DNA of 64,000 nt from Candidatus Xenobia bacterium. GTDB lineage: Bacteria > Vulcanimicrobiota > Xenobia > Xenobiales > QWHO01. Position 1 is the stretch's first letter; each line of letters begins with the position of its first letter. Shown here piece after piece: positions 10,683 to 41,249 of this stretch. The notes below the pieces were generated by a model that worked only from the letters and a program-made list of their open reading frames with translations, was not told the DNA's origin and ran no database searches. The DNA lies in the NCBI GenBank assembly GCA_045863235.1, contig BTUM01000035.1:1-64000 (forward strand). Reading direction: 5' to 3'. The position numbers and the translations under genes are program-made.

Positions 10683-12395
10683 TCACTTGCCGCCGCGGAT
10701 GAAGTCCTCTTCGTAGTGCTCCATCGTATAGGTCGGGGTGCCACTCTGTCCGACCAGGAATCGGTTGGTCTTGTCCTGCTTCATCACCAGCCCGTCGTTG
10801 GGATCGTCGCGCTGGAAGAAGACCTCGTCTTCAGTGAGCATTGCGCCTGAGACGATGATCGAGAAGTTGGACTGGGCATCGGTCTGGAACTTGATCTTCT
10901 TGTTGGCCATCATGTTGAAGCTCATGAGGTAGGCCTTCTGGCCGCCGTACTTGGGTAGCTTGGTCCCCCCGCCAACCTGGATGGTAATCCCTTCCTGGCC
11001 GATCAGGGTGAAGCCCGAGAATCCGGCCTGTCCCCTCTCGACCGTGGGGTCGGTGGGCACGACCGAGCTGCCATTCTTGGTGAAAGCCGGCTCATGGTCG
11101 GCCCGGAACAGAGGAGCCATCTGGCCATCGTCCTTGAACTGGAACACCATTTCCTCGCTGGATACGTAGGCCTTCTCGTTCTTACTGGCGCCCCGAATGG
11201 AGTTCACCTTCTTCTCGAAGTAGACCACCCCGTTCGTCAGGCCGCTCACCTCGGAGTTGGGTGCCCCCGTGGCGGGGGTCTTGCCAGGATTCCAGACCCT
11301 GGTCAGCTGCTTGTCCTCATCGTAGATCACGGTGTACTTCTTGCCGCTCGAGTCGGTGATGACCATCTGCTGGTGCAGGCTCTCATAGTATTTCTTGTTC
11401 TTGGAGTCGACCGGGTCGGTGAATTGCGGCGTGCTGGGATTGTTGTCGTGCTTGTAAGCCACTTTGTTGTAAGAGTCGTTGACCAGGGACAGCTCCACGT
11501 CGGCTACATCGATCCCTTTGAAGATCAGGCCTCCGCCCGCAACCGCGCTGAGGCCCGTGGGAAGCGTGGAGTAGGTCTTCCCGTTCAGCGCCAGGTTCAA
11601 CATGCTCTTCGGGTTGGAGGAGCCGTTGACGACGTTCAGGCTGCTGCTTTCATTCATGTCCGGAATCTCTTTCTCGGGAACCGGTCCGAGAAAGCCCGGG
11701 GAGCCGAGCTCGAAGACCTTGCCCCAGTCCTTCTCGGACAGGGGAACGCTGAATGGGCCGTTCTCTACCTCGGGCGTCTTGGTGGCCGTATCCGACCAGG
11801 TCAGGGAGATCGAGCTGCTGGTGGGTTTGTGGAAGGGCGGGACGTTGCCCGCCGCCCAGCCCCAGCCACCCCAGTTGATCTTAGGAATGGTGTTGGTGTG
11901 GACGGTGTCGTAGTAGTCGACCCCCTGGCCGGCCACCAGCGTGGTCGTGTTGTCGGCCCGGATCATGTCCTGGAAGAAGACCGAATCGAGGGTTCTCAGG
12001 TAGGCGGTGGCCACCAGGTAGGTGCGGTTGTTGTACCTCGCATCGGAGTTGACCCGCCACCAGCCCGCGGGGAGAGCGTTTCCTGCCAGGTCGGTATCGT
12101 GGAAGGTGGCCTCATAAGACCAGCCGTTGCCGAACCCTTCCGCGGCGGAAAGCGCCGGGAGCATCAATCCATCGGCTGGCAGGCCGCCATCGTTGATCCA
12201 CTGCAGGGCCTCGATCACTCCGGCCTCGCCCACCAGTGACCCCGTGGTTCGGAGTTTGAGCTGGGTGGTCGCCCTTGCCTCCATCGGGAGGAGGGTGAAG
12301 AACGCTACTGACAGCAGGAACGTGAACATCATCACAAAGATGGCGAACAGCACCGAGCCTCGACGGCCCCAGAGCTTTCGGTGCATGAACTGCAT
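10683..12395 (-). CDS. large PilX/GspK-like minor pilin (cassette A)
   Basis: RRG|SVLFAIFVMMF class III-like leader without Glu5; GEAGVIEAL motif; AAGGAG RBS; follows two prepilin genes. Confidence 0.7.
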   Translation of the reverse strand: MQFMHRKLWGRRGSVLFAIFVMMFTFLLSVAFFTLLPMEARATTQLKLRTTGSLVGEAGVIEALQWINDGGLPADGLMLPALSAAEGFGNGWSYEATFHDTDLAGNALPAGWWRVNSDARYNNRTYLVATAYLRTLDSVFFQDMIRADNTTTLVAGQGVDYYDTVHTNTIPKINWGGWGWAAGNVPPFHKPTSSSISLTWSDTATKTPEVENGPFSVPLSEKDWGKVFELGSPGFLGPVPEKEIPDMNESSSLNVVNGSSNPKSMLNLALNGKTYSTLPTGLSAVAGGGLIFKGIDVADVELSLVNDSYNKVAYKHDNNPSTPQFTDPVDSKNKKYYESLHQQMVITDSSGKKYTVIYDEDKQLTRVWNPGKTPATGAPNSEVSGLTNGVVYFEKKVNSIRGASKNEKAYVSSEEMVFQFKDDGQMAPLFRADHEPAFTKNGSSVVPTDPTVERGQAGFSGFTLIGQEGITIQVGGGTKLPKYGGQKAYLMSFNMMANKKIKFQTDAQSNFSIIVSGAMLTEDEVFFQRDDPNDGLVMKQDKTNRFLVGQSGTPTYTMEHYEEDFIRGGK

Positions 12396-12410
12396 GGGAT
12401 TGCTCCTTTG

Positions 12411-12986
12411 CTACGGGTCTGGGAGGGTTACCGAAGGCACGTGGGCGGCGGTCTCGAGCATATAGTCGATGGTCCGGAGCTGACTCCGGGCGCTCTTGAC
12501 CTGGCCCTGGACTCGGACTTGAACCTGGACGGTCGAAGCTGCCGCCGCCGGGCGGGTAAAACTGAGGCCCGTGATGGTCCGCTCAGGAGTGGAGCGACCC
12601 AGCACGCGCGTGGTGGTCGCCACATCTCCGTTGTAGAGCTCCAACAGGATGTCATTGTTGACCAGGCGCACCCGGTAGTTGTAGCCGATCGGGTTGGCCG
12701 GGTTGTAGGGGACCTGGTTGTGATAGTCGCGGCCGGCGCTGAAGACCAGAGTCGAGCTCGTTCCGCCGGCCAGGGGGAAAGTCACGCTCTCGGCGCTGAC
12801 CAACAGAGGAACGATCCGCTCCAGATTCTCGCGAGCCGAGTGATACAGGGCGATGCGACCGTCTTGATGGCTGTAGGTGCTGATGGAGGCCATGAAAATC
12901 TGGATGGTGGCCAGCCCGATCATGGAGAGCAAGAGCGAGCTGACCAGAAGCTCGAGTACCGTGAACCCTCGTCTGCAATTGCTCAT
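12411..12986 (-). CDS. prepilin-type N-terminal cleavage/methylation protein (PilW/GspJ-like, cassette A)
   Basis: MSNCRRG|FTVLELLV; ATGA overlap with the upstream gene. Confidence 0.85.
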   Translation of the reverse strand: MSNCRRGFTVLELLVSSLLLSMIGLATIQIFMASISTYSHQDGRIALYHSARENLERIVPLLVSAESVTFPLAGGTSSTLVFSAGRDYHNQVPYNPANPIGYNYRVRLVNNDILLELYNGDVATTTRVLGRSTPERTITGLSFTRPAAAASTVQVQVRVQGQVKSARSQLRTIDYMLETAAHVPSVTLPDP

Positions 12987-13444
12987 GGGGCGGCCAGGTC
13001 GGTCGAGAAGCCGACCAGTTCGACAGTCTTTTCCGTCCCCGCGTCGGTGCGCCAAAAGACGCGAACCTTGATGCGAGCGATGTTGGCCTTGTACCCGGCC
13101 CCGATCCCCTGGGTGATCTCGACGTTGCGAGTGAAACCCGCGTCGTCCGGAGCCATGGTCAGGGGGGCTGCATTCAGTGCCTTGCGAGTGGCCGCGCTGG
13201 GATCGTTGAGGTTGCCGCTGGGGTCGACCCAGGCATAATTGTTGGTACGAATCATGTCCATGACCTGAGAGGCATAGCCCGTCGCGGTGGCGGTCTTCTG
13301 GGCCTGGGCGTTGGCGCGTACTCCATAGGCAAACGAACCCATCAAGCCCAGCAGGGCGATGGTCACGACCACGAGCATGATCAGGATCTCGACCAGGGAA
13401 TACCCACGGCGCACCCGTCGGCAGATCTCGCAAGAGAGGATCAA
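12983..13444 (-). CDS. prepilin-type protein (PilV/GspI-like, cassette A)
   Basis: RRG|YSLVEILI; C-terminal IKVRVFW strand; GGGAGG RBS. Confidence 0.85.
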   Translation of the reverse strand: MILSCEICRRVRRGYSLVEILIMLVVVTIALLGLMGSFAYGVRANAQAQKTATATGYASQVMDMIRTNNYAWVDPSGNLNDPSAATRKALNAAPLTMAPDDAGFTRNVEITQGIGAGYKANIARIKVRVFWRTDAGTEKTVELVGFSTDLAAP

Positions 13445-13461
13445 AGAGCACCTCCCGAAGT

Positions 13462-13490
13462 AGTTTACCAGGCAGATCCCTTGCTTTCAA
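13462..13490 (-). promoter_or_regulatory. sigma70-like promoter of cassette A
   Basis: TTGAAA-17 bp-TAAACT with TG extension. Confidence 0.6.
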
Positions 13491-13674
13491 CCTGAGATAC
13501 TCTTGGGTACCCTAAAGGTTCCAGTTTCTGTAGCTAGAGATGCCGCTTTTTGAATACGACGGGGCTGGCGCGGTGGATCTTGCGGTCTCGGCTCGACGCC
13601 CCTTCAGTTCCCGCCTCGGACAGGTCCGCCCAACTCCAGGATCTTCTGAAGAGCCGGACGAACCGCGTGCCTCG

Positions 13675-15363
13675 ATGACCGTTTCTCAGGCTGCTCTCGC
13701 CCTCGAGCAGGCCCTGGGTGATCCGTTCCGTGCTGACCACGGGCTGAGCTTCAGCGCGGCGGTGGCCCGCGACGAAGCCGAGGAGTTTCCTGGCGAGCTG
13801 GTGGATGCGTGCCTGGCTGCGGGCCTGCAGCGCTGGTTCGTGCCCGCCGAGCTCGGGGGCGAGCTGCGCCGGTATGCCGAGCCGGCCGCTCTCCTGCGCG
13901 TGGTGGCCCGTCGCGATCTGACCGCCGCCATCGCCCTGGGTCAATCCTTTCTCGGCTCGGCCCCCATCTGGATTGCGGGCTCGAGCCTGCAGCAAGAGCG
14001 GATGGCCGAGCTCTTGCTGTCCGGGGAGTGCTGCGCCCTGGCTTTGACCGAGGAAGCCCATGGGAGCGACATCCTGGCCAGCGAGCTCAGGGCCACTCCG
14101 GCCGGCGACGGATACGTCCTGGAGGGGGAGAAGTGGCTCATCAACAACGCCACCCGGGGCGCGGCCCTGACCCTGTTCGCGCGCACTGCTCCCGAGGGAG
14201 GACTCGATGGCTTCAGCCTGCTTATGCTGGACAAGGCCGCCCTTCCCGGCGACTGTTTCACGCAACTGGAACGCAAGAAGACCCTCGGCCTGCGGGGAGC
14301 CGACATCTCGGGAATCCGACTCACCGGGGCCGGTCTGCCCGCTCAGGCTCTGGTCGGTCAGCTCGGGTCGGGCCTGGACTGTGTGCTGAAGGCGCTGCAG
14401 GTAACTCGCGCCGGCTGCGCTTCCTTCTCACTGGGCGCGGCCGACTCGGCCCTGCGCATCGTGCTCGATTTTGCCATGAGCCGCAGGCTCTACGGGGGAA
14501 CCGTGCTGGACATTCCCCACGCCCGGGCCTGCCTCAACGACGCCTTTGTCGACCTGCTCTGCTGCGACGTGCTGGCCATCCTGGCTCCCCGGCTGCTGCA
14601 TCTCTTGCCGGAGCAGATGAGCCTGATGTCGGCGGTCGTGAAAAGCCTGGTTCCAACCATGCTGGAGAGGGCCATTCGGGAGCTGGCGATGGTTTTGGGA
14701 GCCCGCCACTACCTGCGCGAGGGGCCGGCGGGCGGGGTGTTTCAAAAATTCCTGCGCGACGCCGCCGTGGTCAGCCTGTTCGACGGCAGCACAGCGGTCA
14801 ACCTGGAGCTCATCGGCCTCCAGTTGCCGCGCCTTTGTGATCGGCGGCTCCGGTGCGATCCGGCCCCCCTGGCCAGCCTCTTCGGGGTGGACCAGCCCCT
14901 GCCCGACTTCGATCCGGGCCGACTGGCCCTGCTCAACCGGGGTCGAGATGCCGTGGTTCAGGGCCTTCCCCAGGCCGAGCGGGGGCTGGCGTGCCTTCCC
15001 TCCAGCGAGCTCGTCCGCGAGTTGCAGGCCCAGGTCGGCACCATCGTCCGCGCTCTGGAGGAGCTGGAGGCGGAGCTGGCCGAGCGCCCGGCCAAACGCA
15101 GCTGGGAGCTGCTGGAGCTTTCGCGTCGATACGGCCTCCTGTACACCGCCTGCGCTGTCTTGCAGCTCTGGCTGCACAGCCGCCAGGCCGTGAACGAGTT
15201 CTTTGAGAAAGGGGAGTGGGTGGCCCTGTGCCTGCATCGGCTGCTCGGCAAGACCCCGGCGCGCCATCCGCTCGAGTTTGCCGGGGAAGCTCGGATGCTG
15301 GAGTTGTATCGCGACAATCGCCTGTTCTCGCTGCTCGACTTCGCCCTGGCGGAGAGGGAGTGA
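13675..15363 (+). CDS. acyl-CoA/acyl-ACP dehydrogenase family protein
   Basis: ALALTEEAHGSD, LEGEKWLINN, TLGLRGAD and SLFDGST motifs; start uncertain (13540 or 13675). Confidence 0.88.
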   Translation: MTVSQAALALEQALGDPFRADHGLSFSAAVARDEAEEFPGELVDACLAAGLQRWFVPAELGGELRRYAEPAALLRVVARRDLTAAIALGQSFLGSAPIWIAGSSLQQERMAELLLSGECCALALTEEAHGSDILASELRATPAGDGYVLEGEKWLINNATRGAALTLFARTAPEGGLDGFSLLMLDKAALPGDCFTQLERKKTLGLRGADISGIRLTGAGLPAQALVGQLGSGLDCVLKALQVTRAGCASFSLGAADSALRIVLDFAMSRRLYGGTVLDIPHARACLNDAFVDLLCCDVLAILAPRLLHLLPEQMSLMSAVVKSLVPTMLERAIRELAMVLGARHYLREGPAGGVFQKFLRDAAVVSLFDGSTAVNLELIGLQLPRLCDRRLRCDPAPLASLFGVDQPLPDFDPGRLALLNRGRDAVVQGLPQAERGLACLPSSELVRELQAQVGTIVRALEELEAELAERPAKRSWELLELSRRYGLLYTACAVLQLWLHSRQAVNEFFEKGEWVALCLHRLLGKTPARHPLEFAGEARMLELYRDNRLFSLLDFALAERE

Positions 15364-15364
15364 C

Positions 15365-16627
15365 GTGTTTCCGCTCCCGCTGACGGCCTTCGAAGAGCTC
15401 ATGGTGCGCGACCGGGCCTTCCCCATGGATATCTGGATCGAGCTCTGCTTCCGTGACCGGCTCTCCGTTCCGGCCCTGGAGGAAGCCCTGGAGGTCCTGG
15501 CCAGTCGCCATCCCCTGCTGGTGGCCGGGGTGGAGAAGATTGGCGGGCGTTTTTGCTGGGTGCCGTCTGCCAGCGCCATCCCATTGGTCCGTGTCGCCGG
15601 TGGGGCCTGGCAGCCCGAGCCGGTTCTTCCCGAAGCCGGGGGAGGGGTCCGGTTCTACCTGGTGGAGCGGAGCGGAGAGTGCTCGCTCTTTCTGCAGGTC
15701 CATCACGCATGCTGTGACGGCGCAGCCATCCGGGTCGTCTTGTTGGACCTGGTCACGCTCTACGCTCGCTTGACGGATCCGCAAGGACCCTGGCCCGAGC
15801 TCACGCGCCTGGAGCCAGCTCTCCTGCCCATGCGCGGCCGCATCCCCCCTCCACCTCCGATCAAGACTCCACGCAACGAGCTGTTGGAGCTGTTTCGCTT
15901 CCTTTTTCCCTGGCCTCAAGCGCTCTCCAGCCAGCCCGGCCCGGGTGGAGATCTGCCCTTCTCGCAAAGGGTCCTCTCTCGCGAGGAAACGGAGGCGGTG
16001 CTGCAGCGGGCCGCCCGTTCGGGCGGTCGATTCCACGAACAGGCCCTCTCCGACCTGTTCGCGGTTCTGGCCGACTGGCAGGTCGCCCACGGAAAGTCTC
16101 GGCCTGGCTCTCGTTTGCGCATCCTGATCCCGATGGACGTGCGCGAGCTGGTCGATCGGCGCCTGCCGGCCTGCAACCGGGTGACCTTCGCCTTCCTCAC
16201 CCGACGATTGGATCAGTGCGGTCCCGATCTCTCCCAGGCACTCCGGGCCGAGCACGAGTACATTCGCGAGTATCGCACGGACCTGGATTTCTTGCGGGGG
16301 CTCGAGTTCGCTTGCGCCAAGCGGCTCTTGCCGCTCATTTTGCGGCTGCCCCTACCCTTGAGCAGCGCCGTGCTCACCAACCTGGGCGATGTGACCCCTC
16401 TGCGCGGCTTCCCCGTGGAGGAGCAGGGGCTGAGGATCGGCGACGCGATCTGCCTGCACGCCAGCGGAGCCACCGGCGTCAGACCTGGCACGATCGCCTC
16501 CTTCAGCCTTTGTCGCCTGGCCGGGAGACTCTCCATCGGGCTGCGCTGCGCGCGCCCAGCCCTGAGCCTGGATGCGGAGAACGCCCTGCTGGACGCGTTC
16601 AAAAGTCGGCTGCTGGGTCTTCACTGA
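15365..16627 (+). CDS. stand-alone condensation-domain / CoA-dependent acyltransferase
   Basis: HHACCDG (HHxxxDG), RHPLL and LTNLG motifs; GTG 1 nt after the ACAD stop. Confidence 0.75.
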   Translation: MFPLPLTAFEELMVRDRAFPMDIWIELCFRDRLSVPALEEALEVLASRHPLLVAGVEKIGGRFCWVPSASAIPLVRVAGGAWQPEPVLPEAGGGVRFYLVERSGECSLFLQVHHACCDGAAIRVVLLDLVTLYARLTDPQGPWPELTRLEPALLPMRGRIPPPPPIKTPRNELLELFRFLFPWPQALSSQPGPGGDLPFSQRVLSREETEAVLQRAARSGGRFHEQALSDLFAVLADWQVAHGKSRPGSRLRILIPMDVRELVDRRLPACNRVTFAFLTRRLDQCGPDLSQALRAEHEYIREYRTDLDFLRGLEFACAKRLLPLILRLPLPLSSAVLTNLGDVTPLRGFPVEEQGLRIGDAICLHASGATGVRPGTIASFSLCRLAGRLSIGLRCARPALSLDAENALLDAFKSRLLGLH

Positions 16628-17900: not shown

Positions 17901-17940
17901 CCCGGCCGGTTCGTGCCCGGATCTCGGGCCGCCTGCCACC

Positions 17941-18777: not shown

Positions 18778-18863
18778 GACCTCGAGCTTAGCCTGGGGGC
18801 CTTAAAAAAGGCTCAGGGTTGGGGAAGCTCGCTCAACTCCCCAGGAAATTGAGCGTCTCGAGG

Positions 18864-18969
18864 CTACACTCCCGCGCGTCGACCTGTTCATTGGAACGCG
18901 CGGGAGTGTAGACAATCTGTTGAACGGCGCCGCGCCAATTCCTGAAGTGTTCAACGCGCGGCGCCTTAG
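18864..18969. mobile_element. ~100-bp palindromic MITE/REP-like element, copy 1
   Basis: near-identical to 51770..51867; 16-bp internal inverted repeat; imperfect terminal inverted repeats. Confidence 0.6.
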
Positions 18970-19075
18970 TGCCACTCCGCTCGATCAGAAGGTGAACTCC
19001 AGCGCACAGACCAGAGTTCGAGTGTATTCCTGCGTGCTCCAGGCATTTTTCAGCCCCGAGCGGTAGACTCGGGTC

Positions 19076-20260: not shown

Positions 20261-20264
20261 TCGA

Positions 20265-21068
20265 TCAGTTCCTCAGATAGACGGAGAAGGGGGCCTGGTG
20301 GGTGAACCGGCTGGCGTAGCCCGGGTCGGTGCCAATTCGGCTCTCCTTTCTTGCCTCCTCAATGGACATCGCTCGAACATCCACCAGCACCTCCACGGGC
20401 AGACCGCCCGGCGGGGGGGCTGAGAACGACTCAAAACCAAGCAAGAAGGTGGCCACGATCTTTTTCTCCCCCAGTCCAGCCTCAGCCATGGCCGACAGGT
20501 CGAACCCGTTGGGGCGGGTCAAATAGGGGGCGATGTTGTTGAGAAGGGTCTCCTCGGTCGTCTCATCGGTGGGCAGGGTGGGTGGGCCCGAGTCGATCAC
20601 CTTGCGGACCAGGACCTTGTGGGGGCAGCGGTCATCGTATCCAGTGGGACCCGCTCCGCCAGCGCAGATCTGGCCAAACGTGTTGTTGTGGTTTTGGGGA
20701 ACCACCAGGTAGTAGAGCACGTTTCGCTGCCAGAACGGGGTTCCATCCTGCTTTCGCACCACCTGTCCCGTGGCCGGATCGATCGGTGACAGGAACCACA
20801 GGGCTTCCCCGTCTCTTCCCCCTCCCCCGAGGGAGTCGCCGACAAACGATCGGGATAAGGCGGAGGGACGAGTCAACACCAGGTCACGCTCGATTGCCAC
20901 GCGAGCCTTGCGCAACTCTCGCATACAGGTGTCGATGCCACTGGTTCGGCGCAGGGTGCTCCTGGACTGGTTGAACAAGACCCCGGCCACCATGAGCAGG
21001 AGGGAGAAAATTCCGAAGACCACCACCAGCTCGGTCAGGGAGTGGGCACCGGTTCGTTTAAGGGGCAT
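20265..21068 (-). CDS. prepilin-like protein (PilW/GspJ-like, cassette B)
   Basis: KRTGA|HSLTELVVVF leader with Glu5; close paralog of 25601..26401. Confidence 0.78.
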   Translation of the reverse strand: MPLKRTGAHSLTELVVVFGIFSLLLMVAGVLFNQSRSTLRRTSGIDTCMRELRKARVAIERDLVLTRPSALSRSFVGDSLGGGGRDGEALWFLSPIDPATGQVVRKQDGTPFWQRNVLYYLVVPQNHNNTFGQICAGGAGPTGYDDRCPHKVLVRKVIDSGPPTLPTDETTEETLLNNIAPYLTRPNGFDLSAMAEAGLGEKKIVATFLLGFESFSAPPPGGLPVEVLVDVRAMSIEEARKESRIGTDPGYASRFTHQAPFSVYLRN

Positions 21069-21537
21069 GCTCCTCCACCAGCCTGCTGGCCTGCACCTCC
21101 ATCTTTCCATAGCCCTGTCGGTTGCCGTTGTTGGACCGGGCTTCCCACCACCAGACGCGGATATCCACTTTCTTGACCCGATTGTTGGGAACAGCACCGC
21201 CCAGCGGGCCGCCAGCGGCGTCGAGAACGGTATTGGCGTAGATGACATACTCGTAGTTGACGCCCCCGATCGTCTCCTGGGTCGGACCCCGCCAGAGTCC
21301 GGCCGCTCCCCAGAACGAGGCGTTGGTGCCAGCGGGCAGGTCGTTGGCGACCTGATAGAGCGTGCGGTTCATGAGAGAATCGGATACCTGGGTGGCCGGT
21401 CCGAGCAGTGCGGACTTCTCGCTCGCGCGCAGGCTGGAGATGGTCGTGCCCACCAGGGCCAGCAAGATCATGGTCAACAAAGCCAGCGCCAGCACGCACT
21501 CAGCCAGGGTGAAGGCCGACCTCGAGGCCCGACCCAT
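21058..21537 (-). CDS. prepilin-type protein (PilV/GspI-like, cassette B)
   Basis: RSA|FTLAECVLAL; KKVDIRVWWW; paralog of 26398..26871. Confidence 0.8.
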   Translation of the reverse strand: MGRASRSAFTLAECVLALALLTMILLALVGTTISSLRASEKSALLGPATQVSDSLMNRTLYQVANDLPAGTNASFWGAAGLWRGPTQETIGGVNYEYVIYANTVLDAAGGPLGGAVPNNRVKKVDIRVWWWEARSNNGNRQGYGKMEVQASRLVEEHAP

Positions 21538-21538
21538 C

Positions 21539-23719
21539 TTAGAAATTGTTCGCCCAGGAGAGCGGGGTCAGAGTGAAGTTGGCCGGAGGAAGGGCTGAGA
21601 GAGAGCCCAGGTAGGACGAGTCGAAAGCCAGATTGATCTCGTCGGCTCGCAGGTCGATGGTTCCCTTTCCGTTGGCCCCCGGAGCGCCAGCTGGATCGCC
21701 TCCGTAGGCGATCAGGCTTCCCTCCAAATTGAACTTGCCCCAGTTTCCTGGCAGAGCCGGGCTGCCGAGCCTGGCGATGAAGTCCCCCTGGGCGTAGATT
21801 ACGCCTTTGAGGTTGACGTCGCGGTAGCTATATACCCCGCCGTTGTTGTCCAGGGTGGAGAAGACGATGTCACCCTGGGCATACATGTTCACTCCCGATT
21901 GCTGACTGGCGGCGAAATTGGCACCCAGCCCGGTGATGTTGATGTTGCCTCCCGAGGTGATGGAGCCGCCCTGGCCCTCAATTGCCGAAGTGAGCCGCAC
22001 GTTCCCCTCGGCCGTCAGGACCGCCGCGGTGCCTGCGGGCGGAGCGAACTCGATGGAGAGGTCGGCGGCATTGAGCGTGTCGGCGACTCCGGGTGGGTTG
22101 AGCACGCCGTTGTTGCCGCCTCCCCCGGTGGGCGGCGGCCCGGTGTACCAGACGGAGGCGGCAGCGGTCTGGAGATCGATCGGGTTGAAGGTGATCGACT
22201 GGTTGCTGTAGTCAAATTGATAACCGGGGACCGAGGTCGGGTTGGCCATCATCTGGAGCATCATCGCATAGGTAACCGGGGCGTCGATCGGGTCGTTGAA
22301 ACCGCCGGTATCCCAGTCGACATCGCTCAAGAGATTGCCGGACATGTCGCTGATATCGATGTCGGCTGACCCGCCCTGGGTGTCGAGCAGCAGCTGTTGC
22401 AGCATGGCCGGGTCGGCGGCGATGGCGGCGGCGATGGCCGCATCGTCTCCACCTGCGGCGGCCTCGGGGTCGCCCGGGGGGGCTTCCTCAGAGCCCAGCC
22501 GCGCCACCACGTTGAGCTCGTTGGTACTGGCGGTTGGCCCAACGTAGATGCTGCCTGTGATGGTCAGCTTCTTGTTGGCGGTGTCGAGCACGACCTCCGG
22601 CGGGAGGGGTGGAGGGGTTACGCCCGGGTTGAGGGCATTGACCGGATCCGAGATCCAGGCCGCATAGTCGGAATAGGACATATCGTAGTAGTGCAAGGTC
22701 GCGCCGCCGCCGTTGTCCCACCAGACATAGGTTCCGGCCGCAAGTTGAGGCCCGGTGGGGTCGGCCTTCTTCACATCGGCCCAGGTGAGCTGGTAGTAAG
22801 GGTCGATCAGGTTCTCGGCCCCCACGACCACGCCCTGGGGCGCCGGAGCGGCCGTGTAGTTGGCCTGCAGGCTGGGGTTGGTGGCCGAGCCGATGCGCAC
22901 CTCTCCATCCGGAGAAACGTAGTTGGGCACGGCCCCGCCGGTCACCTTGGCCTCGCCTTTACTGCGCAGGCGCGGGGTGCTGGACGAGTTGGAGGTTACA
23001 TTGACGGCCCCGGACCCGGCTGGCAGCAGGGCCAGGAAGTCCTTGCCGGACATGCTGCCCGACTCCTGGACTTGAGGGCCCATGTCGGGAATCTGGTAGA
23101 CGGCCTCCACCACTTTGCTGGCGACGGCGCTCCCCAGGTTGGGATTCAGGTTGCCGGGGTTGAGCTGGTTGCAGGCCGGTCCAGCTCTTCCCTCGACGGC
23201 CAGGCTGACGGCCCAGATCGGGACACTGAAGGCGGTCGGGCTGCCCGGGCCCACCGAGCTGCCGGGGCCATCGGCCCTGGGAACCGGAGCTGAGGCTCCC
23301 CCGAGCAAGTTGTTGATTGAAACGAACTGGTTCTGGATGGTCAGGGCCGGGTCGTCCAGGCCGTCGGCCCCGGGCGACCCGTCCTGATAGTTGAAGCGCA
23401 GCCGAAACTGCGACCAGCTGCCGTCCGGCGCGCGCACCAGACCCACCACGTTGCCCTGGTCTTCCTGCACGTAGAGGTCGGCGCTGTTGATCGTCACCTG
23501 ATTTCGATTCCCGCGCCAGGCGGGGTTCTGGCGGACCTGAGAGAGTGCGTAGCTGATCCCTGACTCGGCTGCTCGCTGGGCCTGGCCCTGATACAGGGTT
23601 TGCTGGCCTGCCGCAAGATTTCCCGGACCCAGTGCGATGGATGCGGCCACGAACATGACCATTACCACGCTGAGCACGATCACAGTGATCAGCAGGATGC
23701 CGCGGCGTTCGCGCAACAT
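21539..23719 (-). CDS. large PilX/GspK-like minor pilin (cassette B), 726 aa
   Basis: MLRERRG|ILLITV, AQRAAESGISYAL; GAGGTG RBS before ATG 23719. Confidence 0.8.
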   Translation of the reverse strand: MLRERRGILLITVIVLSVVMVMFVAASIALGPGNLAAGQQTLYQGQAQRAAESGISYALSQVRQNPAWRGNRNQVTINSADLYVQEDQGNVVGLVRAPDGSWSQFRLRFNYQDGSPGADGLDDPALTIQNQFVSINNLLGGASAPVPRADGPGSSVGPGSPTAFSVPIWAVSLAVEGRAGPACNQLNPGNLNPNLGSAVASKVVEAVYQIPDMGPQVQESGSMSGKDFLALLPAGSGAVNVTSNSSSTPRLRSKGEAKVTGGAVPNYVSPDGEVRIGSATNPSLQANYTAAPAPQGVVVGAENLIDPYYQLTWADVKKADPTGPQLAAGTYVWWDNGGGATLHYYDMSYSDYAAWISDPVNALNPGVTPPPLPPEVVLDTANKKLTITGSIYVGPTASTNELNVVARLGSEEAPPGDPEAAAGGDDAAIAAAIAADPAMLQQLLLDTQGGSADIDISDMSGNLLSDVDWDTGGFNDPIDAPVTYAMMLQMMANPTSVPGYQFDYSNQSITFNPIDLQTAAASVWYTGPPPTGGGGNNGVLNPPGVADTLNAADLSIEFAPPAGTAAVLTAEGNVRLTSAIEGQGGSITSGGNINITGLGANFAASQQSGVNMYAQGDIVFSTLDNNGGVYSYRDVNLKGVIYAQGDFIARLGSPALPGNWGKFNLEGSLIAYGGDPAGAPGANGKGTIDLRADEINLAFDSSYLGSLSALPPANFTLTPLSWANNF

Positions 23720-23753: not shown

Positions 23754-23762
23754 ATCATAGCA
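23754..23762 (-). promoter_or_regulatory. extended -10 element upstream of cassette B
   Basis: TGCTATGAT on the minus strand, 35 bp upstream of the start. Confidence 0.5.
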
Positions 23763-25596: not shown

Positions 25597-25600
25597 CCGG

Positions 25601-26401
25601 TCAATTGCGCAGGTAGACCGAGAACGGGGCCGTCCGAGTAAAGCGGCTAACAAAGCAGGGAGCTGCCCCCACCTGGATCTCCCGGCGCGCCTCCTCGATC
25701 GACAGAGCTCGCAGGTCGATGAAGATCTCTCTGGGGATGTTGCTGGGCGGGGGGGCGGTGGAGGACTCGAAGCCCAGCAGCCAGGCGGCGCTGATCTCGC
25801 GCTCGGTGAGTCCCGGCTCGGCCATGGCGGCGAGACTGAACCCAAGCGGGCGGGTCAGGTAAGGGGCGACGTTGGCCAACAAGGTTTCCTCAGTGGTCTC
25901 GTCCGTGGGAATGGTGGCGGCTCCCGAGTCGATCACTTTACGGATCAAGACCTTGTGCGGGCAGCGATCATCGTAGCCGTTAGCGGCGGCGCCTCCCAGG
26001 CAGCTCATCCCGAAGGTTGCGTCGTGGTTGTTGGGAACCACCAGATAGTAAAGGATGTTTCGTTGCCAGAAGGGGGAGCCGTCCTGCTTGTGGACCATCT
26101 CGCCCGTGGCGGGATCGACCGGGGAGAGAAACCAGAGCGCTTCCCCATCCTTGCCGCCCCCACCGAGCGAATCGGGCACCTGAGCCCGTTGCACCTGGCC
26201 GGGGCGACCCACGACGAGGTCTCGCACGATGGCAGCACGAGCTTTGCGCAACTCGCGCATGGCCGTGTCCTGGCTGTTGGTCCTTCGAAAGGTGGCCTGG
26301 CTCTCTCGAAACAAGAGGGCCGTGATCGCCAGGATGGTGGAGAAGATCCCGAAGACCACGATCATCTCCTGCAACGTGTGACCCCCTGGTCTCCTGATCA
26401 C
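25601..26401 (-). CDS. prepilin-like protein (PilW/GspJ-like, cassette C)
   Basis: RRPGG|HTLQEMIVVF; GTGA overlap with the upstream gene. Confidence 0.78.
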   Translation of the reverse strand: MIRRPGGHTLQEMIVVFGIFSTILAITALLFRESQATFRRTNSQDTAMRELRKARAAIVRDLVVGRPGQVQRAQVPDSLGGGGKDGEALWFLSPVDPATGEMVHKQDGSPFWQRNILYYLVVPNNHDATFGMSCLGGAAANGYDDRCPHKVLIRKVIDSGAATIPTDETTEETLLANVAPYLTRPLGFSLAAMAEPGLTEREISAAWLLGFESSTAPPPSNIPREIFIDLRALSIEEARREIQVGAAPCFVSRFTRTAPFSVYLRN

Positions 26402-26871
26402 GGGGCTCCTTCGTTCACCAGGCGGCTGGCCTGGACTTGCAGGCGTCCGTAACCCTGACGGGAGCTGTTGCTCGAGCGCGAGTTCCACCACCACACCACC
26501 ACGTCCACCTTCTTCAGCCGATTGTTGCCTGCCCCGTCTACCGTGTTGGCGTAGATGGCGTATTCGTAGTTCACCGCGCCGATGGTTTCTCCGGTGGGTC
26601 CCCGCCAGGGGGCCGGCCCGGAGGCTGCCCAGAACGAAGCTTTGGTGCCGGCCGGAAGGTCGTTGGCCACCTGGTAGAGGGTCCGGTTCATGATCGACTC
26701 GCTCACCTGGGTGGCCGGCCCGAGCAGAGCAGCCTTCTCACTCGAGCGCAGAGCCGACATGGTGACCCCGATCAGGGTCAGCAAGATCATGACCAGGAGC
26801 CCGATGGCCAGCATGACCTCAGTGAGGGTAAACCCGGGACGAACTCGCCAGATCAGCGGTGGGTGCTCCAC
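26398..26871 (-). CDS. prepilin-type protein (PilV/GspI-like, cassette C)
   Basis: RVRPG|FTLTEVMLAI; KKVDVVVWWW. Confidence 0.82.
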   Translation of the reverse strand: MEHPPLIWRVRPGFTLTEVMLAIGLLVMILLTLIGVTMSALRSSEKAALLGPATQVSESIMNRTLYQVANDLPAGTKASFWAASGPAPWRGPTGETIGAVNYEYAIYANTVDGAGNNRLKKVDVVVWWWNSRSSNSSRQGYGRLQVQASRLVNEGAP

Positions 26872-29009
26872 GCGATGGTTTTGACCTCGAATCCGGGCGG
26901 CAAGATGGAGGAGAGAGCGCCCACGTAGGAGGTATCCAGGATAAGGTCGACCGCCTCAGCCCGCAGGTCGATCTTGCCTTTGCCGTTCGTCCCCGGAGGT
27001 CCGGTCGGATCGCCGCCGTAGGCAACCAGGGTTCCTTCGAGATCGAAGTTGGCCCACTGCCCCGGCAGGGTCTCGCTGCCAAGCCGGGCGGTGAAGTTCC
27101 CTTGAGCATAGACCACGCCTTTCAGGCTGACCGGCTGGTAGGCGTAGTTGCCCGGGACGGTCTCATCGAGGGTGGAGAAGTAGATGTCGCCGGCTGCGTA
27201 CATGTTGACGGCCTCGGAGGAGAAGGTGGCTCCCATTCCAACGATTCGGATGTCGCCATTGCTGGTGATCGAGCCGCCCACGCCCTCCACCGAGCCGGTC
27301 AGACGCACGTCTCCTTCGGAGGTCAGCACCACCGCGCCACCGACGGGAGGATCGAACTCCAGGCTCAGATCGGCGGCCGTCAGGCTATCGGTCACGCCGG
27401 GCGGGTCGATTTCTCCGGCCGGAGGCCCTCCCCCGGAGAAGCCGAACTGGGCTGCGGCGGCAACCTGGTCAAAGGGGATGGGCGCGCACCCCGTGTCCCA
27501 GCCCCAGGTCGGCTGGGTGGTCTGATCAAAAATGTACTTGATGGCATCCTGGTCGCTGGCGCCATTGGTCGAGTTGATCTGAATGTTGGTGGCATCCCAG
27601 ATGATCTCGATCTTGTCGGCCCCGGCGCCGCCTGCGTCTTCCGCGTCAATTTCGCCGGATGGGCCCTGATATTGCAGGAGGAACTGGTGCAGGATTCCCC
27701 CCTGGGAGATGTCTGAGGTCAGGGTCACGGCAGCCGAGTCGGCCATAGAACCGCCGCCCGCCTCCGGGTCGCCGGGAGGTGCCTCGGGCGCGCCTCCACG
27801 GGGAATGATGCTGAGTTCGTTAGTGGTGGCGGTGGGGTTGATGTATAGACTACCCGTCAGCTTCATCTTGTGATTGGCCGGGTCGACCGTCACCTCGGGA
27901 GGAAGGGGGGGAGGCGAAACCCCGGGATTGTTTGCGTTGGCCGGGACCTGGATGAAGTTGACGTAGTCGGTGTAGCTCATGTCGTAGTAGTGGAGGCTGC
28001 CGTCCTGCCACCAGACATAGGTACCGGCAGCCAGCTTGGGGCCGGCCGGGTCGGCCTTCTTTACGTCGGCCCAGGCCAGCTGGTAGAAGGGATCCACGGC
28101 TGCTTCGCCGGCGACGGAAACCTGGGCGGAATCGTAGAGGGTCCCGGCAGTGAGGGCGCTGTCCACGCTCCGAACCTCGCCGTTGTTGGCCAGGAGATTC
28201 TCGCTCGCATTCCCTCCGCTCACGCCGGCCGTGCCCTTGCTGCGGATGCGGGGCGTCTTGGTGGTATCCTTGGAGGTGACGGTGACCTTCCCGGGGCTGC
28301 CGGTGCGGAGTGTGACCGCAAAGTTGCCGGCTGACATGCTGCCCGACTCTTGCACGGTGGGTTGGAGGTTGGGAACCTGGTAGATGGCTTCTACGACAGT
28401 GGCGCTGTTGCTGCCGGTCAGGGGCGGGTTCGGGTTGGCCGGACTCAGCTGCTGGCAGGCCGGCCCGGCTTTGCCTTCGGCTGCCAGGCTGACCGACATC
28501 ACGGGAGTCTGGAAGGGTCGGGCGCTGGCCGCGGTCACCGCGTAGCCGGCCCCATCGGCGCGGGGCACCGGGGCGGCGGCAATGCCCTGGAGGTTGTTCA
28601 CCGAGACATACTTGTGGTCGATGAACAGGGTCGCCGGGTCGTCCAGTCCGTCGGCTCCGCCTGCTACCGGGCCATCCTGATAGTTGAAGCGCAGCCGGAA
28701 CTGAGACCAGGTGCCGTCCTGTGTGCGGACCAGGCCGACCACGTTGCCGTTGTCCTCCTGCACCCAGAGGTCGGGCAGGTTGATCGTGACGGCGTTCTTG
28801 TCTCCCCTCCAGAGCGGGTCGGCGCGCAGCCGGGTGAGAGCGTAGTTGAGCCCGGACTCGGCCGCTCGCTGGGCGTGGCCCTGATGAAGCACGGCCTGAC
28901 CGGCCATCAGGTTGCCCGGACCAAGTGCGATGGCCGCCCCCACGAACATGACCAGCACCACCGACAGAACGACGGCGGTGATCAGGACGATGCCCCGGTT
29001 CTTTCTCAC
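26853..29009 (-). CDS. large PilX/GspK-like minor pilin (cassette C), 718 aa
   Basis: MRKNRG|IVLITA, AQRAAESGLNYAL; colinear paralog of 21539..23719. Confidence 0.8.
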   Translation of the reverse strand: MRKNRGIVLITAVVLSVVLVMFVGAAIALGPGNLMAGQAVLHQGHAQRAAESGLNYALTRLRADPLWRGDKNAVTINLPDLWVQEDNGNVVGLVRTQDGTWSQFRLRFNYQDGPVAGGADGLDDPATLFIDHKYVSVNNLQGIAAAPVPRADGAGYAVTAASARPFQTPVMSVSLAAEGKAGPACQQLSPANPNPPLTGSNSATVVEAIYQVPNLQPTVQESGSMSAGNFAVTLRTGSPGKVTVTSKDTTKTPRIRSKGTAGVSGGNASENLLANNGEVRSVDSALTAGTLYDSAQVSVAGEAAVDPFYQLAWADVKKADPAGPKLAAGTYVWWQDGSLHYYDMSYTDYVNFIQVPANANNPGVSPPPLPPEVTVDPANHKMKLTGSLYINPTATTNELSIIPRGGAPEAPPGDPEAGGGSMADSAAVTLTSDISQGGILHQFLLQYQGPSGEIDAEDAGGAGADKIEIIWDATNIQINSTNGASDQDAIKYIFDQTTQPTWGWDTGCAPIPFDQVAAAAQFGFSGGGPPAGEIDPPGVTDSLTAADLSLEFDPPVGGAVVLTSEGDVRLTGSVEGVGGSITSNGDIRIVGMGATFSSEAVNMYAAGDIYFSTLDETVPGNYAYQPVSLKGVVYAQGNFTARLGSETLPGQWANFDLEGTLVAYGGDPTGPPGTNGKGKIDLRAEAVDLILDTSYVGALSSILPPGFEVKTIAWSTHR

Positions 29010-29116
29010 GTGCCCCCCTCGGCATGAAGTTCCCTTGAGATCTTACCGCGGAAATCACCGCATTCAAGCCCGCTTCATTTCAGAGATTTTTCGGCCCCGC
29101 CGACGAGCATGGGAGG

Positions 29117-38615: not shown

Positions 38616-40283
38616 ATGCGGCGAAAGCAGGGGGTCAGCCTGGGCACCACCTTGATGGTGGTCTCCATCGTGGCCATGCTGGGCCTGGCCCTGGCGGCCA
38701 GCAACATCACCCACCTCGGCCTGATGGCCCGCAGCAACAACGCCACCCTGGCCCTGGACCAGGCCCGCTCGGCGGTGGACATCACCCTGGCCCACCTTTA
38801 CACCGATAAGGTCTATGGCACCAACAACGAGACGGTGACCTGCCAGGGGCCTGACCAGAGCGCGGGTTGGGTCACCTTCGACCCGGCCGAGGCGGCCCGG
38901 CTGGGGGTCAGCCAGTCGCTCAACAACCTCAGCCAGAACGGCTCCAATCTGGCCCCTGATGGCCAGGTCGTGCCCCAGCAGGGTGCCTACCTGGTGGGCG
39001 TGGGCAGAGCTAACGGAGTGACCCGCACCGTACGGGCGGTGGTGTTCCTGCCGCCCTATCCCTACGCCGCCTCCAGCGATGGGGCCATCGTGTCGCTGGG
39101 CAACCTGGTGGTGGGCTCGCTCCAGACAGGCCAGAGCGTGGGCACCCCAGCCGACCAGCTCGCTCCGGCCGATATCGCCAGCAACGACCCCACCGGGCTG
39201 GCCATCGATCTCGGCCCGAGCAGCACGATTCGGGGCAGCCTGCGAGCCGTGGGGGGAGTGCGGGTGGCGCCCGGCAGCGTGGTCGGCAAGCAGTTGACCG
39301 GGCAGTCCCCGGTCAAGGTGCCCGACATGCAGGTGGACAGCTTTGACCCCGCCGCCATGAGCCCACCTCAGCAGAGCACCGCCCTGCAACCTGTCTACTC
39401 ACAGAGCACGGGCTTCACCGGAGCCTTGCGCCGGGATGGCGACGTCACCGTGACCGGGGATCTCACCCTCACGCAGGCGCTGGTCTTCGTGCGCGGCAGT
39501 CTGAACATCACCGGCAGCGTGACCGGAGAGGGGATCCTTGTTGCCACGGGCGACCTCACGATCGGTGGTCAGGCCCGGATGACCAGCGCCAACCGGGTTG
39601 CCCTCCTGAGCAAGGGCAAGATCACCCTGGCCGGAAACGGGCCGGCCAGCTCCGACCTGCGCGGCCTGGTCTATGCCGAGAACGGCCTGTCGACGCAGCA
39701 GCTGAGCGTGCAGGGGGCGGTGGTGGCCCGCAACCCGCAGAAGGTGGAGATGGTCGACACCCGCCTGCTGGGAGATGGTGCGCTGCTGCAGGCGCCCTTT
39801 GACATCGCGCTCGCTCAGCCCGCTCCTACGCCGCCCTACGTGGTGGGGAACGGGTTGACCGCCCCTGAGGGCTCGTCTTCCCAGGTTGACATCGTGGCAG
39901 CCGCCCAGCAGGCTCCCGGGGCGAGCGCGTCCTTCTACCAGCTGACTTCCTTTCAGGTCACGTCGAGCCCGGATGGCACCATGGGAATCTCCATCGTTAC
40001 CACCACATACGAGAGTGGTGGCTCGAGCGTGGCCGAGCCGGTCATTCTGAACGGTCTGTCACCCGAGGACCTCACCCTGGTCCTGACCACCGGCCGGCCG
40101 GCCGGCACCGGGCTCCCTGCCCTCCCTGGCCTGGGCATCAAGCCCCAGCAGGTCCCCACGTTCGACCCCCCCGGTAGCTCCGGCAGCGGTTCGGGTGCAG
40201 GCATCTTCCAGCTGAGCGTCGACCCGAGCCAGCTCTTGCCGCTGGAAGACCGGGCCCGCATCCTTCTCTGGCGCGAGGATTGA
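38616..40283 (+). CDS. large PilX/GspK-like minor pilin (cassette D), 555 aa
   Basis: MRRKQG|VSLGTTLMVV; SLNNL; repeated G-x-[LV]-x-[VI]-x-G beta motifs; C-terminal ILLWRED. Confidence 0.75.
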   Translation: MRRKQGVSLGTTLMVVSIVAMLGLALAASNITHLGLMARSNNATLALDQARSAVDITLAHLYTDKVYGTNNETVTCQGPDQSAGWVTFDPAEAARLGVSQSLNNLSQNGSNLAPDGQVVPQQGAYLVGVGRANGVTRTVRAVVFLPPYPYAASSDGAIVSLGNLVVGSLQTGQSVGTPADQLAPADIASNDPTGLAIDLGPSSTIRGSLRAVGGVRVAPGSVVGKQLTGQSPVKVPDMQVDSFDPAAMSPPQQSTALQPVYSQSTGFTGALRRDGDVTVTGDLTLTQALVFVRGSLNITGSVTGEGILVATGDLTIGGQARMTSANRVALLSKGKITLAGNGPASSDLRGLVYAENGLSTQQLSVQGAVVARNPQKVEMVDTRLLGDGALLQAPFDIALAQPAPTPPYVVGNGLTAPEGSSSQVDIVAAAQQAPGASASFYQLTSFQVTSSPDGTMGISIVTTTYESGGSSVAEPVILNGLSPEDLTLVLTTGRPAGTGLPALPGLGIKPQQVPTFDPPGSSGSGSGAGIFQLSVDPSQLLPLEDRARILLWRED

Positions 40284-40285
40284 GC

Positions 40286-40870
40286 TTAGAAATCCTGGTT
40301 GCGAAGCCGGATGCTGCGCGTCAGCTCGAAACGCTGGTCCTGCACCGCCAGAACCAGTCGCACCGTGGGCGCGGGCGCGGCCAGATCGACCTCGAAAGCC
40401 TGCACGTGGGTGGCCAGCACCCGGTCGCTAGCGCTCGTCCCCCCGATCAGCTGGCCCAGCTCGGCCAGAGTGGGGGCGAAGGCTGCATTCACGGTCGGTG
40501 CGCCGCGGACCAGGTTGGGCGGGCCGGGCGGCCAGCTGCGGTAGCGGAGCTGGCCCGAAGGATCGAGCCAGTAGAGCCGCAAATTGTCGCTCCAGGCCTG
40601 ATCGCCCGCGCCGGTCACGTCGGCCAGCGGCTGCGCCGCCAGGATGGGAGGACCGGTCACGAAGCTCAGGCCCTCGAGGGGTGTGCGGGACAGGTCGCGC
40701 ACGATGCGGTCGACGCTGACCTGGGCCAGCTGCTGCAGCTCGATCTGCTGGGTGCCCCGCCGGGCGCCGGTGACCATCGGCAAGAGCACCTGCGAGAGCA
40801 GGATCAAGAGCAGCAAGAGCAAGACCCCGCCCAGCATGACCTCGATCAGCGTGAAGCCCCTACGGAGCAT
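40286..40870 (-). CDS. prepilin-type protein (PilW/GspJ-like, cassette D)
   Basis: MLRRG|FTLIEVML; C-terminal IRLRN. Confidence 0.85.
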   Translation of the reverse strand: MLRRGFTLIEVMLGGVLLLLLLILLSQVLLPMVTGARRGTQQIELQQLAQVSVDRIVRDLSRTPLEGLSFVTGPPILAAQPLADVTGAGDQAWSDNLRLYWLDPSGQLRYRSWPPGPPNLVRGAPTVNAAFAPTLAELGQLIGGTSASDRVLATHVQAFEVDLAAPAPTVRLVLAVQDQRFELTRSIRLRNQDF

Positions 40871-41249
40871 AGACCCTCGTGACCTCGCGCACCACCTCGT
40901 GGGGCACCTGACGATCGACCCAGCTCACCCGCACCCGCAGACCGATGAGCAGGCCCGGTTTGGTGCCCGGCCGGTCGGCGGGGAAGATCTCCAGGGTGGG
41001 CTGAAATCGCGTCCCGTGCCCGTCCACAGCTGGCAGCGCCTGCGGGGGGGCGGGTACCAGTTGCGCAAAGGGGAGGGCCAGTTGTCTCTGCAACACGCTC
41101 TCGGCCAGGGCATTGGCCTGCAGGCGCTGGCCCGAGTAGCGCACGCTGGCCACCGAGGCGGGGTAGAGGTTGAAGATCAGTACCACCACCAGCCCCAGCA
41201 GGAAGAAGCACAGGATCAGCTCGGCCAGGCTGATGCCACGTCGGGTCAC
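40860..41249 (-). CDS. prepilin-type protein (PilV/GspI-like, cassette D)
   Basis: MTRRG|ISLAELIL; LRVRVSW; GTGA overlap with the upstream gene. Confidence 0.82.
   Translation of the reverse strand: MTRRGISLAELILCFFLLGLVVVLIFNLYPASVASVRYSGQRLQANALAESVLQRQLALPFAQLVPAPPQALPAVDGHGTRFQPTLEIFPADRPGTKPGLLIGLRVRVSWVDRQVPHEVVREVTRVYAP

Follow-up and report, generated by a model that had tools for sequence, protein, structure and literature searches.

Putative type IV pilus tip cassettes with giant PilX-like subunits form a large library in a Candidatus Xenobia genome

We analysed a 64,000-nucleotide (nt) stretch of DNA from a Candidatus Xenobia bacterium (GenBank assembly GCA_045863235.1, contig BTUM01000035.1, positions 1 to 64,000), referred to here as the window. 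Between positions 10,683 and 41,249 it carries four gene sets, A to D, each encoding two small prepilins resembling PilV/GspI (V) and PilW/GspJ (W) and one giant subunit resembling PilX/GspK (X). The source genome holds 60 such triads, about fifteen times as many as the window. We consider it likely, with a probability of roughly 0.75, that the triads prime and cap a type IVa pilus with X on top as the adhesin, that they form a standing library, and that cognate PilC platforms with kinase and GAF-domain inputs help to choose the tip. This suggests that one filament can be fitted with many different sticky heads.

Results

Four gene sets in the window

A first-pass annotation of the window had described four three-gene sets in differing gene orders, and all twelve genes and their orders were confirmed: V-W-X in A, X-V-W in B and C, and X convergent on V-W in D. 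Each of the eight small genes encodes a basic leader with G or A at position −1 and Glu at +5 (Glu5). Each of the four X genes encodes a leader and a hydrophobic helix without Glu5, in agreement with the two Glu5 prepilins and one Glu5-less protein of 555-726 amino acids (aa) that had been proposed for every set. The features are as follows.

10581..10681, minus strand: scar of 101 bp left by a lost X gene of the B/C family, immediately past the A-X stop
10683..12395, minus strand: A-X, giant PilX/GspK-like subunit, 570 aa, no Glu5 (X profile)
12411..12986, minus strand: A-W, PilW/GspJ-like prepilin, 191 aa, Glu5 (N_methyl E 4e-4, slightly below cut-off)
12983..13414, minus strand: A-V, PilV/GspI-like prepilin, 143 aa, Glu5 (TIGR02523 PilV E 1e-10, 42.3 bits, below the cut-off of 52.2)
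13462..13470, minus strand: extended -10-like box of set A, pattern match 56 nt upstream of the V start, candidate promoter
20265..21068, minus strand: B-W, W-like prepilin, 267 aa (GspJ TIGR01711 E 0.003, well below cut-off)
21058..21537, minus strand: B-V, V-like prepilin, 159 aa (leader with Glu5)
21539..23719, minus strand: B-X, giant X, 726 aa, with a pilin head, a beta-rich body and a helical insert at about residues 411-545
23754..23762, minus strand: extended -10-like box of set B, pattern match 43 nt upstream of the X start, candidate promoter
25601..26401, minus strand: C-W, W-like prepilin, 266 aa, 66% identity to B-W
26398..~26871, minus strand: C-V, V-like prepilin, start uncertain by about 15 nt, 69% identity to B-V
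26853..29009, minus strand: C-X, giant X, 718 aa, paralogue of B-X with 55% identity
38601..38609, plus strand: extended -10-like box of D-X, 15 nt upstream of the start, candidate promoter
38616..40283, plus strand: D-X, giant X, 555 aa, with a pilin head, a DUF3494-like beta-solenoid, a distal domain and a C-terminal return strand
40286..40870, minus strand: D-W, W-like prepilin, 194 aa (leader with Glu5)
40860..41249, minus strand: D-V, V-like prepilin, 129 aa (leader with Glu5), its start overlapping the PilC stop
41246..42796, minus strand: GAF-PilC/GspF platform protein, start perhaps at 42739 (T2SSF E 1.4e-36 in two stretches; GAF E 2.3e-10)
42793..44088, minus strand: membrane Ser/Thr kinase with an extracytoplasmic N-terminal domain, first gene of the D module (Pkinase E 1.3e-52)

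The sets had been called distinct. There are indeed four of them, but B and C are an old tandem duplicate lying 5.3 kb apart, and the window therefore contains three families rather than four. The two X paralogues share only 33% identity in the helical insert compared with 58-65% elsewhere. A-X is a singleton when the X proteins of the genome are clustered, and its orthologues in two relatives (G001 and G002) are 88-89% identical. The promoter-like elements that had been noted before A, B and D were found as boxes before A-V, B-X and D-X, and the same pattern search returned none upstream of C-X. D-V and D-W most likely lack a promoter of their own, because the D-V start overlaps the stop of the GAF-PilC gene and the kinase gene lies above. 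These last two genes had been overlooked, and set D is a five-gene module of kinase, GAF-PilC, V, W and X rather than a three-gene set.

The genome encodes sixty triads

The source genome, from an uncultured bacterium of wastewater type, comprises 8.36 Mb in 166 contigs (97.6% complete, 2.6% contamination). Its genes were called with a home-made caller, so that start positions and control gene sets are approximate. After five pattern matches judged false had been removed, a prepilin profile was trained on the genome's own prepilins and run over 88,734 stop-to-stop frames. It returned 158 seeds and 13 new matches scoring at least 22 bits, with the next candidate at 12.3 bits; this clean gap indicates that the prepilin calls are not due to chance. 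One prepilin fragment at a contig end (9.5 bits) was added to the count manually. The X profile likewise separated accepted matches (26 bits) from the next score (18.1 bits), and three seed rows at or below 18 bits were removed from the counts.

In total, 172 Glu5 prepilins and 76 X-like genes were found in 96 clusters: 60 of two prepilins and an X, seven of three prepilins and an X, and 29 partial ones (seven pairs without X, four single prepilins with X, 13 lone prepilins and five lone X genes). The order was V-W-X in 28 triads, X-V-W in 25, X on the opposite strand in five and another arrangement in two, and X exceeded 340 aa in 57 of the 60. The X proteins fall into 25 groups, with a median best-hit identity of 34.5% and a maximum of 55%. 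Cassette genes occupy 2.6% of the genome on 49 contigs, and their G+C content (0.605-0.709) lies around the genome mean of 0.658. Broken members include a 198-aa X at C27:34244 and a 52-aa V at C3:163510.

The leader pattern of the window held throughout the genome, with G or A at −1 in 168 and Glu at +5 in 169 of 171 prepilins, and Glu at +5 in none of the 74 X proteins that could be scored. No FimU/FimT/GspH-type fourth partner was found in the 60 clusters, those of the window included, each of which has only two Glu5 genes; a shared H subunit encoded elsewhere in the genome is possible.

A second class of cassette was also observed, in six four-gene copies (L115-L120: C16:17231-21168, C18:44469-48271, C21:23113-26911, C43:22414-26187, C76:14264-18037 and C83:19834-23577). 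A Glu5 pilin of 640-700 aa comes first; the other members are two prepilins of medium size and an X of only about 155 aa. The copies are 29-38% identical. The first gene of the C16 copy, the only copy with such a scan result, gave a GspH-like head and propeller-repeat matches. From its domain matches, the adhesin in this class appears to be fused to the H subunit in place of X.

Family matches of V, W and X

In a Pfam scan none of the 12 triad proteins scored above any family cut-off. N_methyl gave the sub-threshold match to A-W, and PilX_N, the other family suggested by the first-pass annotation, matched none of the four window X proteins and three of 40 X paralogues scanned (one above cut-off, two near it), while DUF7305, which corresponds to the solenoid region, matched 14 of the 40. 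The Atlas feature neighbours of A-X (score 0.97) and B-X were clusters bearing PilX_N, one of them named ComZ. V and W weakly matched the XpsI, GspI and GspJ models, and the D platform scored highest with GspF. With V and W profiles, the match to TTHA1219 was confined to the first 45-68 positions, and EpsI was matched at E 0.35.

Other bacteria also carry prepilin families. Planctomycetes have DUF1559 prepilins, and the Verru_Chthon cassette of Verrucomicrobia (TIGR02596/02598/02599/02600), a four-gene prepilin operon in which one member is very large, is present in many copies per genome. W and V weakly match cassette proteins C and B at the N-terminus. Verru_Chthon cassettes belong to a different phylum and have four genes, and the best scores of Verru_Chthon models on window proteins were far below cut-off (21.8 versus 256.5 bits and 18.6 versus 51.4 bits). 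TIGR02600 (cassette protein A) gave no match at E≤1 for any of the four window X proteins. We know of no PilC pairing in Verru_Chthon cassettes.

X models resemble ComZ, and D-X has a variable distal domain

The predicted model of D-X (predicted local distance difference test score (pLDDT) 80.1, predicted template modelling score (pTM) 0.61, alignment of 20) consists of a long N-terminal helix with a sheet, a solenoid at about residues 148-390, a lower-confidence domain at about 400-530 and a final strand. Foldseek placed ComZ first (E 2.2e-6) and DUF3494 ice-binding solenoids next. In VIA-align comparisons, D-X matched an ice-binding solenoid with Z 17.2 (root-mean-square deviation (rmsd) 3.1, 187 residues aligned), ComZ with Z 14.7 (rmsd 8.4, 295 aligned across 39-556) and the Streptococcus sanguinis minor pilin 7o5y with Z 7.8 (rmsd 3.8, 106 aligned across 30-556). 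The B-X model (pLDDT 80.9, pTM 0.60, alignment of 34) gave weaker matches, and its only Foldseek hits at E≤0.001 were three ComZ chains (best E 1.8e-4). The X heads of D and B/C were found to be homologous (probability 99.2). These models indicate that both X proteins are ComZ-like pilins and that in D-X a beta-solenoid is set into the pilin fold. They agree with the original assignment to V/W/X and with the proposal of an adhesin-type domain fused to X.

When the three subunits of set D were submitted to complex prediction, the score was 0.78. It fell to 0.00 and 0.01 in controls with X replaced, but a control with W replaced scored 0.67, within the margin of 0.20, so that the prediction counts neither for nor against binding.

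The distal part of D-X is the most divergent. Residues 401-520 share 31-42% identity with orthologues, compared with 61-96% in the remainder, and the ratio of non-synonymous to synonymous substitution rates (dN/dS) was 0.38-0.62 there versus 0.08-0.18 in the pilin and solenoid parts. A homologue search with D-X returned seven proteins, and most relatives of D-X align over residues 1 to about 390 only. Against orthologues, purifying selection was evident in the pilin/solenoid parts of all three X proteins tested (A, B and D; dN/dS 0.03-0.22).

Few secretins, many PilC platforms

No ATPase or secretin match was found on the contig of the window, as the first-pass annotation had stated for the window itself. 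The type IV filament machinery that it expected lies elsewhere in the genome: PilA, PilB, PilC, PilD, PilM/N/O, PilQ and PilT are all present, with pilA, pilD, pilM, pilN, pilO and pilQ in one cluster and pilB, pilT and pilC in another. A third cluster encodes type II secretion, with gspF-E-D and with J-, I- and K-like genes of its own (C26:68532-70761). We found one prepilin peptidase, two strong secretin matches and one weak, three strong PilM matches, nine PilB-like matches above 260 bits (one above cut-off) and 22 PilT matches (10 above cut-off). The ATPases found class as PilB or PilT; no Tad-specific search was made. PilY1 (PF05567) had no match in the source genome, and the model was likewise silent in all 14 control genomes.

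PilC/GspF genes, by contrast with the two strong secretins, number 42. Together with some 60 tips, these counts indicate few outer-membrane channels and many platforms and tips. PilC genes are concentrated near cassettes: 17 of the 42 lie within 300 nt and 26 within 3 kb, compared with 2% and 6% of other genes. The idea of a tip library for a shared machine was therefore upheld as to the machine and exceeded in the size of the library; it needs amending in that PilC is expanded and travels with the cassettes, which leaves the machine only partly shared.

Ser/Thr kinases within 3 kb of a cassette amounted to 21 of 93, and to eight of nine D-type kinases. Every one of the five GAF-PilC genes touches a cassette, and the five form a single branch in a quick tree (support of 99 in the Shimodaira-Hasegawa-like approximate likelihood ratio test). 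All five modules are ordered kinase, GAF-PilC, V, W, with a related kinase first in the other four, and X is convergent in four of five, the fifth stopping at a contig edge. The GAF-PilC of the window is a candidate dedicated platform of set D. On the PilC tree as a whole, the cassette-linked genes required six changes versus a mean of 6.3 with shuffled labels; they are no more clustered than expected, indicating that linkage was gained or lost many times.

Other expansions and fusions were noted in the same genome. It has 93 Ser/Thr kinase genes, at least 10 PilT paralogues and several PilB proteins with long N-terminal fusions. A PilC fusion of 1011 aa is encoded at C32:10799-13834. An atypical cluster at C2:135506-141267 combines a PilB-like ATPase and three PilC-like genes, all highly divergent, with two prepilins and an X of 102 aa. 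The high divergence concerns the PilC-like genes.

Inheritance, turnover and possible expression of the modules

Similarities among the subunits of the 60 triads were compared after exclusion of the first 25 residues. They covaried significantly (Mantel r 0.44 for V-W, 0.33 for V-X and 0.40 for W-X; p 0.001), and the nearest neighbour was shared between subunits in 22-26 of the 60. In the 21 triads with a linked PilC, PilC similarity correlated with that of V (r 0.47) and W (r 0.44).

Where the scar lies beside set A, G002 (L092) has an X gene that is intact (766 aa) and precedes a V gene; the scar matches a part of this X gene at 88% identity. G001 has nothing at this position, and one RNA-library contig skips the scar. 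These comparisons indicate that the scar records the loss of a cassette.

In the R64 PilV shufflon, short recombination repeats surround alternative C-terminal segments. No recombination repeats were found between 9000 and 45000: among the matches listed (20 direct families, 25 inverted pairs) there were only the diverged B/C homology and repeats at chance level. The library thus consists of standing genes and is not a shufflon.

TGCTA was found upstream of 25 of 64 cassette operons versus 70 of 1065 control genes, whose starts are less certain. Read as an extended -10 box, this motif suggests that the cassettes are transcribed separately. In public data, 18 RNA-library runs from nine studies, mostly of wastewater or sludge, contain 5-32% of the words of 20200-29100. 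Contigs of runs X3, X5 and X7, from three studies, are about 91-93% alike over B-X, and one spans the whole of set B (20265-23704); in X5 and X7, contigs covered A and C sparsely or not at all. Run X1 gave even cover in 28 of 30 bins, as DNA would.

Expansion in relatives

Counts were extended to relatives in several families of the phylum (f1-f4 and f14 among them), the genus of the source lying within f1. They are given as tallies, without statistical tests, because kin are not independent. X-profile matches, cross-hits included, numbered 65-111 in all four genomes of the genus and 46 to at least 118 in all 16 of f2. In f3, whose genomes are mostly of 2-3 Mb, all 19 had 5-23, and one f4 genome had 34; two one-contig f14 genomes had no X match. 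PilC domain matches were 32 to at least 79 in f1 and f2 and 6-40 in f3. Across 81 genomes of the phylum, V-profile matches were 49 to at least 50 in f1/f2, 1-42 in other families and 0-2 in 25 f14 genomes. The relative G013 (20 contigs, 99% complete) had 114 X matches, about 86 of them in frames of at least 400 aa. X families are shared across f1 and f2, and of the 30 D-family loci taken from relatives, 11 have a PilC inside their 1.5-kb flanks. Judged by these matches, the large-genome relatives share the cassette expansion.

A single V-W pair precedes three or two X genes in G013 and G006, and G006 also carries six X genes in tandem, for which the 27 kb examined contained neither V nor W. 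Heads thus outnumber bases in these genomes, which fits a swappable X. Giant X genes of 820-950 aa stand in tandem, as many as six in a row and with at most one V-W pair in the vicinity, at L141 (G006:C3:165718-182721), L143, L144 and L146; such arrays occur even in a 2.4-Mb genome.

Other features of the window

Adjoining set A at 13540-16627 are an acyl-CoA dehydrogenase gene and a gene for a protein with a weak condensation-domain match, perhaps part of a lipid or small-molecule pathway. Several RNA runs contribute stacked contigs with loose ends in the intergenic segment 18860-18970, possibly at a dispersed repeat or small RNA. Two near-identical 51-nt copies, 64 nt apart with a palindromic junction, lie at 30250-30364. 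Further genes encode an 888-aa CHAT-domain protein (49064-51730) and an HD-domain protein with a repetitive N-terminal region (58912-61425). No tRNA or Rfam match was found within the window.

Discussion

We propose that each triad encodes a complex that would prime and cap a type IVa pilus. After cleavage of their leaders by PilD, V, W and X, the last lacking Glu5, would assemble on a PilC platform with X uppermost, and PilB would then add the single major pilin underneath. The solenoid and variable distal domain of X would thereby come to lie at the filament tip as an adhesin that replaces PilY1. About 60 three-gene tips and six four-gene tips, the latter with a GspH-like pilin fused to a beta-propeller, would be available for very few outer-membrane channels. 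Modules would be inherited, duplicated and lost as units and transcribed separately. About a third have a PilC paralogue next to them, in many cases together with a Ser/Thr kinase or GAF domain, and this arrangement probably decides tip choice and timing. The genes with their leaders and counts, the folds of two X proteins, the covariation, the linkage, the turnover and the spread in the lineage are observed. The trimer, the tip position and the adhesive function are suggested by analogy with ComZ, cyanobacterial PilX and GspI/J/K; we infer the loading by cognate PilC, the control by signals and the nature of the ligands, which may be other cells or surfaces. Other cells, prey or hosts, might account for somewhat less than half of the adhesin uses and inert or polysaccharide surfaces for a little over a third, and mixed use is likely.

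Several observations weigh against this proposal. V and W score below every family cut-off, the fold evidence comes from the models of D-X and B-X, and the TM-scores between B-X and ComZ are low (0.13-0.18). Positive selection was not found, dN/dS remaining below 1 even in the D-X distal domain, and neither A-X nor B-X has a variable region relative to close orthologues (that of B-X is 96% identical); diversifying selection is therefore unsupported. The covariation of V, W and X is expected from joint duplication alone and is no proof of partner specificity, and that between PilC and X is weak (r 0.18, p 0.03, n=21). PilC lies within 3 kb of 24 of 78 multi-gene cassettes, leaving 54 without, and some tips could serve the type II secretion cluster. 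The X profile gave 103 matches in the source genome versus 76 X genes, which sets the scale of cross-hits in relatives. The expression evidence is weak, as the four RNA runs compared with 10200-30100 were contigs from runs picked by their match to the stretch, with no silent control.

The leader pattern of GspI/J/K is the same as that of V/W/X, and the triads could accordingly tip short periplasmic pseudopili of the type II secretion kind, never exposed at the surface, with each PilC/GspF selecting a substrate class or sensing the envelope. The weak XpsI, GspI and GspJ scores of V and W, the preference of the D platform for GspF, the separate gspF-E-D cluster and the ratio of 42 platforms to two secretins would all suit such an arrangement. 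We nevertheless regard it as unlikely, since J-, I- and K-like genes are already part of that cluster, the 10 PilT retraction ATPases point to surface pili, and the solenoid X proteins of Thermus and cyanobacteria are described on surface pili (PMC6561018, PMC13759059). The nearness of ComZ as the closest solved fold, together with the single ComEC gene (C1:344794), raises the question of whether the tips are DNA receptors of competence pili. Sixty divergent receptors are not needed for one DNA channel, however, and ComEC lies more than 100 kb from the nearest cassette on its contig; a general role of this kind seems very improbable, although one or two cassettes may serve competence.

The number of tips invites two further explanations. 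The tips might be interchangeable disguises for one adhesive function, varied to escape pilus-binding phages or grazers, as the hypervariable distal domain of the D family and the gain and loss of cassettes between close relatives might suggest. This would sit poorly with paralogues that are ancient (25 X groups at a median best-hit identity of 34.5%) and families common to f1 and f2, with plain purifying selection on A-X and B-X, with just one clear major pilin in the machine cluster and with cassettes of the window that lack flanking recombination repeats, and we judge it decidedly unlikely. To the idea that the number is too high because the bin is mixed, or because genes that are mostly dead have duplicated neutrally, we give hardly any weight. 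The genome is indeed in 166 contigs, and there are broken members and the scar in the window, but contamination is only 2.6%, the G+C content of the cassettes brackets the genome mean, a relative in 20 contigs has more X matches, all 20 f1/f2 genomes show the expansion, and all three X proteins tested are under purifying selection.

The tip design itself is already known from ComZ and cyanobacterial PilX; what we have not found described is its scale and the pairing with dedicated platforms and kinases. ComZ of Thermus thermophilus, which acts with PilA2 (PDB 6QVI; PMC6561018), is likewise a large tip pilin with a beta-solenoid within the pilin fold, but it is one DNA-binding competence tip, whereas here there are at least 60 divergent tips, an extra variable domain in the D family and an unlinked ComEC. 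In cyanobacterial PilX the solenoid lies between the last two strands, with extra domains at the far end (PMC13759059). The Com and EPS FimT-PilW-PilV-PilX sets described there share with our triads the solenoid PilX, lineage-specific distal domains and a stand-in for PilY1; V and X co-occur strictly, and distinct filaments arise from a shared machine. They differ in number, two per genome and each with FimT, compared with about 60 without FimT/GspH, six with a GspH-propeller fusion and 42 PilC genes here. The Kil Tad pilus of Myxococcus xanthus carries interchangeable minor-pilin tips with variable outer domains, Tips 1-4, for prey detection (PMC12075869). That is a Tad system with four (five) tips, whereas the present genome has PilB/PilT/PilC/PilQ and more than ten times as many, for which a role in prey detection is conjectural. 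Several fimU-pilV-pilW-pilX clusters tailor one type IVa pilus in myxobacteria (PMC13190605), but with a mean of two PilY1 per genome, three in M. xanthus, and with the adhesin as a separate PilY1 protein.

Predation has been predicted for Candidatus Eudoremicrobiaceae (PMC9259500). Supplementary table rows of that study list 29 T4P_pilC, 13 pilB, 12 pilT/U, four pilAE and one pilQ for Ca. E. taraoceanii, which, as far as these rows go, is the same signature as in our source genome. In the available text of the paper, pili are mentioned in the methods only, and no other searchable supplement names them. The available portions of PMC9758169, PMC11484240, PMC10469934 and PMC1569441 contain no description of the expansion. 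Our literature search returned no paper that describes either the scale seen here or the pairing with PilC.

The bacteria studied so far use two to five tip sets to tailor a type IV filament; here there are sixty or more, which raises the question of how one machine chooses among them. The paralogues offer a ready test of partner specificity among V, W, X and PilC, and they amount to a large natural collection of putative adhesin heads built on a common scaffold. They also give a molecular starting point for asking how these uncultured bacteria of sludge and the sea attach to particles, hosts or prey. More speculatively, the pilus may be programmable, each tip being loaded by its own PilC with control by a kinase or a GAF ligand, so that a signal selects among 60-90 heads, with the library acting as a prey or host recognition repertoire. 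We hold this extended version to be possible though rather doubtful. If true, it would give a large-genome Eremiobacterota lineage already suspected of predation (PMC9259500) its recognition repertoire.

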